This document shows positions 43,055 through 53,425 of a stretch of DNA of 64,000 nucleotides, one piece after another; the stretch's first letter is position 1, and each line of letters begins with the position of its first letter. The notes beneath the pieces are model-generated. The model was not told the origin of the DNA, did not search any database, and saw only the letters and a program-made list of their open reading frames with translations. The DNA is from a virus (Duplodnaviria; Caudoviricetes). The translations under genes and the position numbers were made by a program. The stretch lies in the IMG/VR virus record IMGVR_UViG_3300027917_004314; one strand, given 5' to 3'.

Positions 43055-43170
43055 GGTATAGATCTCGGCTAGGTGGTTGACCTTAGCAGGTTGATCAAAC
43101 TCGCAGGACAGAGATCTGGATTGGTTTGGGCCACCGATCTTTGTGGGTTCGACTCCCACATGTACCGCCA
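43055..43170 (+). ncRNA. tRNA-like RNA, 116 nt, non-canonical interior
   Basis: GGTATA/TGTACC, then GCCA; T arm GTGGG-TTCGACT-CCCAC. Confidence 0.5.
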
Positions 43171-43549
43171 AGCTCTCGTGTGTTGTGTATCCATGATACA
43201 CACCTGGATGGTGAAAGCCAAGGTGAATACACGAGAACTTTTTAGCCGCCCTATGGCTTGAGATGAAGGGCGGAAGAATGCAAAGCCGCACACGTACACA
43301 TATAGGCGGTACGCATCTTCTTAGCCCTAAATCAACAGAGTACTGCGTGGCTAAATGTCTTGGAGCGTCAGGCTGTAGAGGATCTTGGCCAAGTACGTAC
43401 CTCTGATCCTTACAGTGGAAGAACTTATCTAAGCTTGGTACACTTAGGTGAAAAGAGCTATGCTGACGTATGTGAAGGTAGGCGGGGACCTTTACCTTGG
43501 CCCTACAAGAGCGGCTAAATAATGCATGTTTCTAATGCTTTAAACATCT

Positions 43550-43623
43550 TGCCCCATAGCTCAACGGTAGAGCAAGCGGCTTATAACCGTTAGATCCAGG
43601 TTCAACTCCTGGTGGGGCGACCA
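43550..43623 (+). tRNA. tRNA-Ile (anticodon TAT)
   Basis: Full cloverleaf, loop CT-TAT-AA, encoded CCA. Confidence 0.9.
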
Positions 43624-43625
43624 AT

Positions 43626-43702
43626 GGATCCTTAGCTCAGTTGGTTAGAGCTGCCGGCTCATAACCGGTCGGTCGCTGGTTCGAATCCAGCAGGGTCCAC
43701 CA
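43626..43702 (+). tRNA. tRNA with CAT anticodon, probably Ile2 (lysidine); elongator Met not excluded
   Basis: Cloverleaf, loop CT-CAT-AA, encoded CCA; body resembles bacterial Ile2 tRNAs. Confidence 0.88.
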
Positions 43703-43711
43703 AACACCAAT

Positions 43712-43787
43712 GGGCCCATAGCTCAGTTGGTAGAGCAACGGACTTTTAATCCGTTGGCCGCAGGTTCAACTCCTGCTGGGCTCACCA
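43712..43787 (+). tRNA. tRNA-Lys (TTT)
   Basis: Cloverleaf, loop CT-TTT-AA, encoded CCA. Confidence 0.93.
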
Positions 43788-44067
43788 AATATGATCCAGC
43801 GCCATTGGCGCTCATCACCATGAAAGATCTACCATATATACATACACTTATGTGTGTGATCCTAGATCCGAAGCGAGGGTGGGTGCCGTAAACCTGTGAA
43901 TTTAAAGCGTTATATGAGGGCACCGGGGGGGCTCTCGTGCTATACGTAAAAATTCCCAAAATGGCGTATAAGTTCTTGGGAATACTGGTGTTATGGCTCT
44001 TAAGCCTATTATCTCCTTCCCCGATGAATAGGGGATTCGGCCCAAGAGGGCCGTAAAAGGAGATAGC

Positions 44068-44304
44068 ATGATTAAGACGGCAAAGGAACTGAGAGACTCG
44101 GGTCTCGGCACGGCTGAGGTCCGAAGCAACCTGGACGCTTCTGGCTGGACCCTTCTGCATACAGAAGTCGTCAGGTACTGTCACGACGATGGTAGCCCTG
44201 TGGGCTACCAGTGGTGGCGGAACCCGTCCGCCGAGATCGTACACACGCGTCTAACGTGTGTGGGAGTAATCGCAGCCTCGGCAGTGGCCGTGCTGCAGTT
44301 GTAG
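44068..44304 (+). CDS. hypothetical protein
   Basis: AAGGAG RBS. Confidence 0.65.
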   Translation: MIKTAKELRDSGLGTAEVRSNLDASGWTLLHTEVVRYCHDDGSPVGYQWWRNPSAEIVHTRLTCVGVIAASAVAVLQL

Positions 44305-44384
44305 CAACTAGAAGCCGAACAGCAGGTAACACCTGGTAAGGAAGAGAGCTGTCTAGCACTGCCAGGGGCTTCTATGAAGAGTTG

Positions 44385-44486
44385 CAATACATTTCCTTGC
44401 AACTTAGGGAAACTCCTACATAAACATGGTGGTAGGGGCTCAGCCCAGGGCGTTAGCCAAGCCTTAAGTTGTAGGGAAATGTGTTG
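44385..44486 (+). ncRNA. long G-U-containing hairpin RNA element
   Basis: About 24-bp stem 44385-44408/44462-44486; mismatches at DNA level are G-U pairs on the + strand. Confidence 0.55.
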
Positions 44487-50883: not shown

Positions 50884-51243
50884 ATGGTTCCTAAGAAAGG
50901 AGATATAGTTAGATTTAGTCCGGAATTCATCAAGTATTTGGAAGACCGTGGGGACTCTAGCTGGTTTGAGCGATGGTATACGGACCTAGAGATAGAGAGC
51001 TGTTGGCGCAGAACAAATGGCGACTATAGAGTGGCTTGGAAGAAGATAGCCGGCAAAGATAGCGACGATATTAACTATATAGGCCTTGATGAGAATGGGG
51101 TTGGTACACACTCTGGCGTTGTGATATTCGTCCCGGTCCATGCGTCGTCTTGCGCCACAGATCCTATCTGCACTGATTGCAACGTTCCAATGGAGTACGT
51201 GAACTTTGCTTACAAGTGCCCGCGATGTTGGAAGCGAGCTTAG
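50884..51243 (+). CDS. hypothetical protein with C-terminal zinc ribbon
   Basis: AGGAG RBS; CTDC...CPRC. Confidence 0.7.
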   Translation: MVPKKGDIVRFSPEFIKYLEDRGDSSWFERWYTDLEIESCWRRTNGDYRVAWKKIAGKDSDDINYIGLDENGVGTHSGVVIFVPVHASSCATDPICTDCNVPMEYVNFAYKCPRCWKRA

Positions 51244-51753
51244 GCTTCATAAGCTAGAGCGAACAGGAAAATTCTTAGAGTGCTGGTGCCTTTTTTCCGT
51301 TCTTTTGAACTAAAGACGGGTAAGCGCACATTCATCGTGCCGCCGAAGGAGAACGCGAAACAAGAACCTGGCACATACTGAGTTTCTTTTTTGCTTTAGC
51401 TTATGAGGCTTATATCTAGCGCGGTACAGTGCGGCTGAGGTCGCAGACATATGTCTATGCTCTGCCAGCCCTTTGGGCCATGAGAAGAGAGCTATACGGC
51501 TAGGATATAATAGCGGTTGAGGGTAAGTAAGTGTCCCCACAAAGAAGCGTCATTGGCTTTGTACCAGGCGTGAGAATGGTACGCACAACCGTGATGGGGT
51601 AGATCCGCTATATAAATAAACCCTACGAAGAGTTCAAGTGTTCATAGTTGCCCCAGATCAGAGTGGTGCGCCTCTTAAACCGGGTGCGGCAGTGAGCGAT
51701 GGCGGAAGACTCCATGCCGGATGATAGCCTAGACCGGCAATTTTTAGGAGAGT

Positions 51754-52275
51754 GTGATGGCTAAGAGACATTATTTTAGGATGTTGCGAACGGATACACA
51801 GATTGCTTCGATGTGGTCTTTATGTGGTATGGCTGCCGGTTATTCTGATGGAGCTAGTCACGTGGCCACAGATATAGAAAACACAGATTGTAAGACGTGT
51901 ATTCGTATTTATAATAAAGATAAACAAAGTACAGTTCATTATTTAGTTGGTAGATTAGGAGATCCTTCTCTATGTGGGCGTTGGGTAGGATCTGCGCTTC
52001 GAGAACTCGAACCTACTGGCAAAATAACGGAGTTGCCAGAACTGGTTACTTGTAAGACGTGTCTGAAGTATATGGGTGAGTCTACTTCAAACGATCTTCT
52101 ACATGTTATTGAATACTTTAAGAAGCAAAGCGACTCTTTCGATGTAGTACCTGTCGGTGGTGAAGTAGGAGCACTTAAAATAGTCACTGTTGAGGACAAT
52201 ATTGACAACCTTAGAGTGTTAGTAGATTTATTATTAGAGAGAGCACCTGGTTTCTTAAAGCCACCAAAGGAATGA
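51754..52275 (+). CDS. protein with two H..CG..CKTC zinc-binding modules
   Basis: SLCG...DCKTC and SLCG...VTCKTC; paralog of 60275. Confidence 0.72.
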   Translation: MMAKRHYFRMLRTDTQIASMWSLCGMAAGYSDGASHVATDIENTDCKTCIRIYNKDKQSTVHYLVGRLGDPSLCGRWVGSALRELEPTGKITELPELVTCKTCLKYMGESTSNDLLHVIEYFKKQSDSFDVVPVGGEVGALKIVTVEDNIDNLRVLVDLLLERAPGFLKPPKE

Positions 52276-52325
52276 GTGTTGATAGAATTTGGTCTGAAGG
52301 GGTTCGAATCCTCTATCACTCGCCA
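52274..52325 (+). ncRNA. minimal tRNA-like element lacking an anticodon arm
   Basis: GAGTGTT/ATCACTC-G-CCA; small D-like hairpin with TGG loop; AGGGG-TTCGAAT-CCTCT. Confidence 0.6.
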
Positions 52326-52344
52326 ACTTTAGAAGGAGTTTCGC

Positions 52345-52554
52345 ATGAAGTTCTTCGCCGTGCATTACTCTGCTGGTAATAGCATGGACGTTAGGATAAG
52401 TCTTCGACTTAACCTGCATACGTCTATTGCTTCTGACATCGGGATTCTCGTTGCCGGTCAAAACAGGTATCTGCTCTGTACGTGCAGCGACCGTGCGGCG
52501 AAGTCGCTGTTAGGTTTGTTGCAGCGGCATCCTCAGTTTCACATGGTTTCGTAG
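52345..52554 (+). CDS. hypothetical protein
   Basis: AAGGAG RBS. Confidence 0.6.
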   Translation: MKFFAVHYSAGNSMDVRISLRLNLHTSIASDIGILVAGQNRYLLCTCSDRAAKSLLGLLQRHPQFHMVS

Positions 52555-52570
52555 TAACGGAAAGAAGGCA

Positions 52571-52807
52571 ATGAATAGACTGTTTCGTAGAATCGATGAC
52601 TGGTGTCGAGGTGTAGCTGCTCACATCATTGTGGCCCCCATGAGATTGTTCGATAATGGAGAAGCGAACATTCCTACCGAGATAGCGTTCTTGTGGTTTC
52701 TCATGATCGTGTGTCTGCCGGTCACTGGCCCCATATCGCTGCCTTTTTGGGCAGTGGCATATGTGGCTAGCAAGGCTGCCGGGCCGGAAGAAGAGGATGT
52801 GGGATGA
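52571..52807 (+). CDS. hypothetical membrane protein
   Basis: Hydrophobic segment. Confidence 0.6.
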   Translation: MNRLFRRIDDWCRGVAAHIIVAPMRLFDNGEANIPTEIAFLWFLMIVCLPVTGPISLPFWAVAYVASKAAGPEEEDVG

Positions 52808-53019
52808 CTGTAGAGGGTTTGGTCGGTAGGTTAAAAACACAGAAAGTGTATGCGGGACAGGTGCAGAGCGGAGATATCCTGGTAGAAGGCACTCCAACAT
52901 TTATCCAGGCCGTGGCTTTCGTTGCGGATAGGGCGATCTTTGTTTTTGAGGATGGAAGCAGGAGAGTCTACTGGGACTACGAAATGGTCAGTATTGTCGA
53001 CCGTGGTTGTTTTAAGTAA
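52804..53019 (+). CDS. hypothetical protein
   Basis: ATGA overlap. Confidence 0.6.
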   Translation: MTVEGLVGRLKTQKVYAGQVQSGDILVEGTPTFIQAVAFVADRAIFVFEDGSRRVYWDYEMVSIVDRGCFK

Positions 53020-53237
53020 CGCGGCGTGGCAAGCGGCATGAGCACGGGCTGCCCACACGGGGTAGGCTACGGGGCCGGACTCCCACGCCGCCATATATAA
53101 GGAAACGCGGGGCGGCGGCTCGTTTATCAACAAAAAAACGTCGAGCTTGCAGCAATTTGGGCCGCCGCCCCGATTTTCCGGGTTTGCTGCCCGAAAAAAT
53201 TTTCTTACATAGCCGTTAAAACGGTCGAGGGAGTAAA

Positions 53238-53425
53238 GGCTAAGTCTTGCGTTATCTAGGCTGATGATACTTCTTCCCGGTTTGCCCCTATGAAGGGTAA
53301 GCATGGTTGCTGGGAAGTCTTAGGCCGTGGTAGCGAGGTAGAGCGGTACCGGAACTAGGCAACGGTTTGGGCGTGTTTCCGGGACATGCAGCGCCGCGTG
53401 GGTTCGATTCCTACCTTAGCCTCCA
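53238..53425 (+). ncRNA. 188-nt structured RNA closed by a tRNA-like acceptor stem, T arm and CCA
   Basis: GGCTAAG/CTTAGCC-T-CCA; GTGGG-TTCGATT-CCTAC. Confidence 0.62.

Follow-up and report, generated by a model that had tools for sequence, protein, structure and literature searches.

Candidate expanded tRNA derivatives resembling T4 species 1 RNA in the tRNA island of a large uncultured phage, one of them dispensable in relatives

The 64,000-nucleotide (nt) stretch of IMG/VR record IMGVR_UViG_3300027917_004314 (Duplodnaviria; Caudoviricetes) analysed here, referred to as the window, belongs to an uncultured phage contig of 460,921 bp found in marine-sediment runs, and it includes a 22-kb island of transfer RNA (tRNA) genes and small open reading frames (ORFs). 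Three elements of this island, E1, E2 and E3 (Table 1), had been described in an earlier note as RNAs capped by a tRNA-like domain in the manner of transfer-messenger RNA (tmRNA). They appear instead to be expanded tRNA derivatives of the kind represented by species 1 RNA of phage T4, one of them being dispensable in relatives. The explanation that we favour, with a probability of roughly 0.45, is that, as with T4 species 1 RNA or the t-elements of plant mitochondria, E1–E3 are non-decoding RNAs excised by RNase P, RNase Z and CCA-adding enzyme.

The T-loop motif GGTTCRANTCC has 17 exact matches in the window, all on the plus strand and between positions 42760 and 62340, compared with 0.27 expected, and three of these (43146, 49133 and 53401) lie in E1, E2 and E3 respectively. 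Each of the three 3' ends consists of a perfect 5-bp T stem, a 7-nt TTCRANY loop, a further 7 nt, and a discriminator with its tail, which reads GCCA in E1, ACTG in E2 and TCCA in E3, so the T-arm ends and the two encoded CCA sequences reported earlier are both confirmed. A looser scan finds 22 T arms in the island, ten of which are unexplained by ARAGORN, with E1–E3 accounting for three of those ten. When one mismatch is allowed in the T-loop motif only nine extra matches are found against about 6.5 expected, showing that T loops are either intact or absent with no half-decayed tail, which argues for selection on the T arm, non-canonical elements included. The base at position -1 is a U before E1 and E2, as it is before most tRNA-type elements of the island.

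The proposition that the ends of all three RNAs pair as an acceptor stem holds for E2 and E3. Using 5000 shuffles of the upstream 230 nt for each element, the 7/7 Watson-Crick closure of E2 (GGTCGAT/ATCGACC) was equalled 109 times (p ~0.02) and that of E3 (GGCTAAG/CTTAGCC) 91 times (p ~0.018), and with about ten orphan T arms tested, two such closures are still unexpected. Chance matches of this quality do arise at roughly the expected rate, as seen in the related phage G001 (IMGVR_UViG_3300005826_000294), in which a normal tRNA-Lys has a chance 7/7 partner 363 nt upstream. The E1 closure (GGTATAG/ATGTACC), with five Watson-Crick pairs, one G-U pair and one mismatch, was equalled by 1994 of the shuffles (~40%) and is at chance level. 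Weaker inner 5'-end candidates for E3 are present at 53295, 53323 and 53364. The minimum-energy folds of all three elements are multi-branched, in agreement with the multi-hairpin interiors noticed before, although only that of E2 is clearly more stable than its shuffles (z = -3.0). In partition-function folds, pairs 1–5 of the E2 acceptor helix have pairing probabilities of 0.85–0.99 with both 60- and 150-nt flanks, and the E3 acceptor helix is context-sensitive; these folds decide little, since in some contexts the acceptor helix of genuine tRNAs was lost as well. ARAGORN calls none of E1–E3 by default, and in intron mode it offers low-quality alternatives with other 5' ends. These, which include a 381-nt 'tRNA-Leu' and a 103-nt 'tRNA-Thr' that end at E1 and E3 respectively, were rejected because their acceptor stems pair worse than the proposed ones.

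Table 1. Positions in the window of E1–E3, their component parts, and other RNA elements of the island.
Feature	Position	Strand	Basis and remarks
E1	43055–43170	+	116 nt; fold and exact T-arm consensus
E1 acceptor 5' strand	43055–43061	+	
E1 expanded D region	~43062–43117	+	fold; closed by CTC 43064–43066 / GAG 43111–43113
E1 anticodon-arm-like hairpin	43118–43140	+	fold; 7-nt loop TTGGGCC; short linker to T arm
E1 T arm	43143–43159	+	exact consensus match
E1 acceptor 3' strand	43160–43166	+	
E1 GCCA	43167–43170	+	
E2	49004–49157	+	151 nt to discriminator at 49154, then CTG; no CCA
E2 acceptor 5' strand	49004–49010	+	
E2 D-stem-like helix	49011–49014 / 49075–49078	+	TCTC/GAGA, 4 bp, flush with acceptor
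E2 inserted hairpin	49015–49073	+	59 nt, enclosed by D-stem-like helix
E2 hairpin	49080–49096	+	5 bp and 7-nt loop CTAGGAT
E2 extra region	49097–49129	+	33 nt
E2 T arm	49130–49146	+	
E2 acceptor 3' strand	49147–49153	+	
E3	53238–53425	+	188 nt; minimum-energy fold
E3 acceptor 5' strand	53238–53244	+	
E3 inserted arm	~53250–53335	+	
E3 inner decayed acceptor-like strand	53323–53329	+	GGCCGTG
E3 D-arm remnant	53330–53346	+	
E3 extended hairpin	~53348–53383	+	
E3 T arm	53398–53414	+	
E3 acceptor 3' strand	53415–53421	+	
E3 TCCA	53422–53425	+	
Insert-bearing tRNA	42681–42784	+	Rfam tRNA 46.9 bits; normal acceptor, D arm and T arm; 44 nt replace anticodon stem-loop
tRNA-like element	48846–48949	+	104 nt; two T arms; directly upstream of E2, in same indel-variable segment
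Genuine phage tmRNA	49259–49608	+	Rfam RF00023 165.3 bits, ARAGORN; G3:U70, discriminator A, no encoded CCA
tRNA-Val(TAC)	50225–50300	+	canonical; both ends like those of E2

The caps are of Met type in E1 and E3 and of Val type in E2, each resembling a different ordinary phage tRNA. For E1 the nearest cap is that of a Felixounavirus tRNA-Met, pair 4:69 having changed in a compensatory way, and both ends of E2 resemble the tRNA-Val of the window and the tRNA-Val of a related contig from ENA (L019). An exact-pattern scan of IMG/VR with the 3' end of E3 retrieved one phage, IMGVR_UViG_3300046739_000039 (L024), which is unrelated to the phage studied here and has a canonical 73-nt tRNA-Met(CAT) at L024:3625–3697 with the same T arm and the same GGCTAAG/CTTAGCC acceptor pair set, the acceptor and T arm being nearly identical to those of E3. 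Single-sequence covariance models of E1–E3, applied to the window, G001 (301 kb), G002 (112 kb), L019 and other loci, recovered canonical tRNAs only, except that the E3 model matches E2 at 31 bits, a match explained, in our view, by 5' and D-arm remnants that the two have in common and by their similar length. Among the non-self matches of the E2 model, the L019 tRNA-Val ranks first and the window's own tRNA-Val third.

Because the caps match ordinary tRNAs and the interiors keep what appear to be D-arm and anticodon-arm remnants, we read E1–E3 as tRNA genes with 40–115 nt of inserted hairpins, although these remnants are assigned on single sequences, in which such small hairpins can arise by chance. 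As folded, the interiors look like expanded tRNA cores and not like an mRNA-like domain, and the simplest description would be a tRNA gene in which the D loop and the anticodon/variable region have expanded. All three elements fail a cloverleaf test (RF00005 at 29 bits or more, with a D arm, a 5-bp anticodon stem with a 7-nt loop, and a T arm). The interiors share no sequence with one another or with anything else, and the idea of a mobile insert was dropped as they are not repeated anywhere in the window. A tRNA containing a group I intron is likewise excluded, since Rfam reports no group I intron or ribozyme in E1–E3 and no intron family at E <= 1 in 41500–64000, and inserts of this size are too short.

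The resemblance to tmRNA lies in the paired ends stacked on a T arm, the lack of a normal D or anticodon arm, and the large insert between the two halves. However, pair 3:70, which is G-U in the window's own tmRNA, is U-A in E1 and E2 and C-G in E3; three-frame translations of E1–E3 contain no tag-like reading frame, as had been remarked before, and no long P2-type helix or pseudoknot is predicted in any of them. A tag frame and pseudoknots, like G3:U70, are all present in the tmRNA at 49259–49608. The tmRNA covariance model also fails. It has no match to E1 or E2 in an Rfam scan of short stretches at permissive thresholds, and reaches only 7.5 bits on E3, confined to the T arm; the tRNA model gives 13.6 bits on E2, again for the T arm only, and no match on E3, and the best match of E1 is to tRNA-Sec (20.6 bits, E = 0.16). 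The tmRNA-like reading, and with it the suggested binding to SmpB or the ribosome, is therefore not upheld. Two further observations concern the tmRNA locus. A terminator-like hairpin (GGCAG..CTGCC) followed by a T-rich run lies between E2 and the tmRNA at 49234–49258, ending one base before the tmRNA 5' end, and a second, permuted 'tmRNA*' called by ARAGORN at 49514–50152, where Rfam tmRNA_permuted scores 22.8 bits, overlaps the 3' end of the real tmRNA and is probably spurious.

Bacterial RNase P, RNase Z and CCA-adding enzyme recognise, as a unit, the acceptor stem stacked on the T arm and ending in NCCA. As this minihelix and its tail are kept in E1–E3 (E1 and E3 have NCCA, E2 at least C74), processing by tRNA-maturing enzymes may reasonably be expected, and to this extent the earlier proposal of non-coding RNAs matured by RNase P/Z and CCA addition agrees with the cap anatomy, on which it draws. 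Non-tRNA substrates of RNase P have been reviewed (PMC11143913). What the sequence shows is this anatomy, the descent of the caps from tRNAs and the lack of tmRNA identity; the transcription, processing and any function of E1–E3 we infer from it as follows. The three elements would be independent, lineage-specific derivatives of phage tRNA genes, each retaining the coaxial acceptor-stem/T-arm minihelix and a discriminator with a C-rich tail, and with D and anticodon/variable regions so inflated by hairpins that the RNAs could no longer decode. The island would be read as long transcripts in which host RNase P cuts at G1; E2, lacking CCA, would be finished by RNase Z and CCA-adding enzyme, and E1 and E3 would be trimmed back to the encoded CCA by 3' exonucleases. 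The excised RNAs would then persist as stable, uncharged or non-decoding tRNA-like molecules, and would serve mainly to mark and protect the ends of transcripts, the role thought to be played by T4 species 1 RNA and plant mitochondrial t-elements.

This interpretation gains from the graded series of other tRNA mimics in the island. In addition to the tmRNA, the canonical tRNAs identified there by Rfam and ARAGORN number nine or ten, a few further tRNAs bear inserts, and the element at 42681–42784 shows that expansion of the tRNA body recurs. A family of small anticodon-less tRNA mimics with six members is common to three phages and has compensatory changes in three stems, which indicates structural selection on the whole class of tRNA-type mimics in this lineage. 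The architecture of E1–E3 itself recurs, as judged from sequence and without homology, in L019, where a 158-nt multi-hairpin RNA (L019:7706–7863) with a 6/7 acceptor and a canonical T arm terminates in ACCA directly in front of an AGGAGG ribosome-binding site. Nor is this the only phage with aberrant tRNA-like genes, since the unrelated 112-kb phage L024, with 26 tRNAs in 14.5 kb, has 33 T arms of which seven are unexplained by ARAGORN. One L024 element, at 8617–8770, has a normal acceptor 5' strand and D arm followed by ~90 AT-rich nt before the T arm.

T4 species 1 RNA (rnaC) is 139 nt long, is annotated inside the T4 tRNA cluster, and is larger than a tRNA, as are E1–E3. Folding here gives it a canonical T arm (CCGGG/TTCGAAT/CCCGG) towards the 3' end, after that a stretch of 7 nt paired with the 5' end, and a multi-hairpin interior. 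It differs in having two U-U mismatches in its acceptor-like helix and no encoded CCA, and its interior has no similarity above shuffles to those of E1–E3. In T4 the eight tRNAs form a compact cluster with two such RNAs at its end (rnaC and rnaD, the latter being species 2), whereas the three of the present island are larger, up to 188 nt, and dispersed over 22 kb among many other mimics; moreover, expression and processing are documented for T4, whereas E1–E3 are known from sequence alone. We know of no function assigned to T4 species 1 RNA since the 1970s.

Plant mitochondrial t-elements are non-decoding, contain the motif GGTTCRANYCC, and have ends that coincide with mRNA ends assigned to RNase P/RNase Z cleavage; some carry a non-encoded 3' C, CC or CA, and they can persist as stable RNAs (PMC1920247). 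They are, however, organellar and about the size of a tRNA or smaller, whereas E1–E3 are 1.5–2.5 times as long as a tRNA and lie away from coding regions. In phage arrays, aberrant or insert-bearing tRNA genes mostly go by the name of tRNA pseudogenes or tRNA-like sequences, XacN1 (PMC5852040) being an example. E1–E3 resemble such genes in being tRNA-derived, in lying in the tRNA array of a large phage, and in being missed by ARAGORN and Rfam, but differ in that E2 and E3 have a perfect minihelix and a core that is expanded rather than point-mutated. YrlA RNAs are tRNA-mimicking non-coding RNAs, some of which lie within phage tRNA arrays (PMC4201824). The likeness to E1–E3 is in the tRNA mimicry, the non-coding character and the setting, and the YrlA model (RF02553) has no match on E1–E3, giving sub-threshold matches only on canonical tRNAs or the 42681 element. 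YrlA termini lie in the Ro-binding stem, not in an acceptor.

Several observations weigh against excision and persistence of E1–E3 as we propose it. The 5' end of E1 is not established, because its closure is at chance level and a rival 5' partner, GGTACTT, starts at 42908, and the stability of the E1 and E3 folds relative to shuffles is weak (z = -1.7 and -0.8), such that overall support from fold stability is modest. Recent insertion into a live tRNA gene would leave the same perfect minihelix without any selection. No ribosome-binding site abuts E1–E3, whereas the small tRNA mimics of the island do abut one, making a pure punctuation role less convincing for the larger elements. No homologue of E1–E3 was found in the two related phage contigs, the phage database, IMG/VR or the JGI metagenomes, and hence there is no covariation to draw upon: blastn and covariance models reveal no counterparts in G001 or L019; blastn of E1–E3 and the tmRNA against 50,697 phage records yields only T-arm/acceptor matches to ordinary tRNAs; IMG/VR scans with flanking proteins and the exact E2 pattern, and JGI metagenome scans with protein alignment and the E3 3' pattern, returned nothing; and exact-protein look-ups retrieved only 100% identical copies of the same phage. 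For a neighbouring gene the best relative (P0002, 71% identity) is on an 11-kb contig in SRR14739665, and no homologue of the gene next to E3 was found. No RNA run containing the 10-kb stretch or 48846–49608 is listed, the region being covered by DNA contigs only. Finally, in contigs of a ~85–90% identical relative from an estuary run, 48843 is followed by 49256, and 49000, after three other letters, by 50225, so that 48844–49255 and 49001–50224 are skipped. E2 is absent there, as counted over the contigs of two strain-level relatives, and is therefore dispensable or very young.

The strongest competing explanation, which we consider somewhat unlikely, is that E1–E3 are neutral relics, that is, phage tRNA genes disabled by insertion or partial duplication and now decaying, with acceptor pairing that is a purposeless leftover or, in E1, due to chance. 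This would account for the lack of homologues, for the chance-level closure of E1, and for the absence of E2 from the nearest relatives with breakpoints at the ends of tRNA genes. On one reading of the sequence, E2 would be an upstream copy of tRNA-Val that has diverged and now flanks an inserted cassette (the tmRNA and two ORFs), and in one relative tRNA-Val directly follows the 48949–49000 spacer. The inner decayed acceptor strand and D-arm remnant of E3 look like a scar, and the orphan T arms of the unrelated L024 array point the same way. Decay, however, should strike all parts of a gene alike, and in E2 and E3 a flawless minihelix of 31 nt encloses an unrecognisable core, which favours selection on the minihelix in these two elements. 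The lack of excess of one-mismatch T loops, the retention of CCA or at least C74, the presence of ten such elements in one island, and the conservation of one mimic family with compensatory changes are also not what simple decay predicts, and suggest that the minihelix is under selection in this lineage.

Less probable again is that the RNAs act in trans, such that huge phages would keep a hitherto unrecognised class of 116–188-nt expanded tRNA mimics, matured and CCA-tailed by the tRNA machinery. These could be decoys or sponges for host tRNA-targeting defence nucleases, or could sequester CCA-adding enzyme, EF-Tu, a synthetase or a modification enzyme, with the inserted hairpins serving as the specific binding surface. 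The intact CCA minihelix and the large, structured interiors fit such a role, as does the location in an island of early type whose small genes are typical of host-takeover regions, and where E1–E3 are set in long, strongly structured ORF-free stretches (43171–43549, z = -4.5) and not directly before ribosome-binding sites; T4 species 1 and 2 RNAs further show that phages keep such stable RNAs. Against it, nothing is common in sequence to the three interiors or to anything else, the elements are not conserved, E2 can be dispensed with in relatives, and no partner protein is identifiable nearby, the neighbouring ORFs having no Pfam match.

Slightly poorer still are the prospects for a role at the DNA level, in which the tRNA-like ends would provide short shared homologies for cassette swaps between phages and the RNAs would be by-products. 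The 5' end of a tRNA-type gene, be it the 48846 element, the tmRNA, E2 or tRNA-Val, lies no more than 3–4 nt from each estuary breakpoint, and gene content between tRNA-type elements differs almost wholly among the three related phages while the elements recur, so tRNA-like ends may serve as cassette-exchange joints. But there are just two joints, in short, low-coverage metagenome contigs aligned at 80% likeness, the homology shared at 5' ends is only 4–8 nt, and the kept acceptor pairing and CCA would be left unexplained. The weakest proposal, that E1–E3 are miniature tmRNA-like ribosome-rescue RNAs which bind SmpB and enter stalled ribosomes, can appeal to the acceptor/T-arm cap shared with the tRNA-like domain of tmRNA and to the true tmRNA 101 nt downstream of E2, but is close to refuted by the absence of G3:U70, tag frame, resume codon, P2-type helix and pseudoknots, by tmRNA-model matching limited to the T arm, and by interiors that hold D-arm and anticodon-arm remnants instead.

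The setting of E1–E3 is sharply bounded. Window bases 1–41,500 are ~39% GC and carry large genes such as those for DnaB, PrkA, SpoVR, ribonucleotide reductase, PhoH and topoisomerase IB, and from ~41.8 kb, where the island starts, GC rises to ~52%; the step (from ~37% to 52%) falls within 41400–42000, and the junction is spanned by an independent assembly. The G001 block homologous to the island is 27–39% GC with one 2-kb bin at 50%, and L019 is ~52% GC; the GC composition of the island is not conserved within the lineage. The island's ~45 small ORFs, preceded by strong AGGAGG-type ribosome-binding sites, all read on the plus strand, with ~21 tRNA-type elements interspersed in the same orientation. 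E1, E2 and E3 each lie in a gap between ORFs bearing ribosome-binding sites, with the nearest ORFs or RNAs 100–380 nt away. Promoter-like sites in the island are not enriched (16 found, 16.3 expected), and the minus-strand ORFs that overlap E1 and E3, for which a family search gave no match, are regarded as frames open by chance in GC-rich DNA. On either side of E1, the ORF-free spacers fold far better than shuffles (43171–43549, -129 kcal/mol, z = -4.5; 42785–43054, -94 kcal/mol, z = -2.9), and on these predictions may hold further structured RNAs without a T arm.

Of the two relatives, G001 has a PrkA 74% identical to that of the window, its own tmRNA and a low-GC tRNA block, and L019 has an island gene of 187 aa at 51% identity. 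This gene and a few tRNAs are all that is common to the window and its two relatives. The gene is of unknown family (window 45128–45774; L015:8669–9331, minus strand; L019:2734–3297; 51–54% identity), is the only island protein common to the three related phages, and in the window and G001 is directly followed by an anticodon-less mimic with the acceptor GAAACCT/AGGTTTC. Two sub-threshold matches to hepatitis delta virus (HDV)-like ribozymes lie between small ORFs in L019, at 986–1061 and 1904–1972 (RF00094, 41 bits, E = 0.004; RF02682, 27 bits), and the window has none. These sequence matches hint that relatives may also cut island transcripts by ribozymes.

If they are made and processed, E1–E3 would join the few phage RNAs, poorly understood so far, in which only the upper half of a tRNA has been adopted. 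The island that holds them is a graded natural series, from canonical tRNAs through arm-less mini-tRNAs and insert-bearing tRNAs to a tmRNA, in which the role of the acceptor/T-arm module can be asked, with transcript punctuation, RNA stabilisation, decoy activity and cassette exchange as candidates. It also shows that ARAGORN and Rfam overlook ~40% of its T-arm-bearing elements. Were E1–E3 relics, they would still illustrate how megaphage tRNA arrays turn over, through duplications that flank inserted cassettes and through growth of the D and variable regions. Should the class of trans-acting mimics prove true, it would provide a functional context for the 50-year-old species 1 and 2 RNAs of T4.

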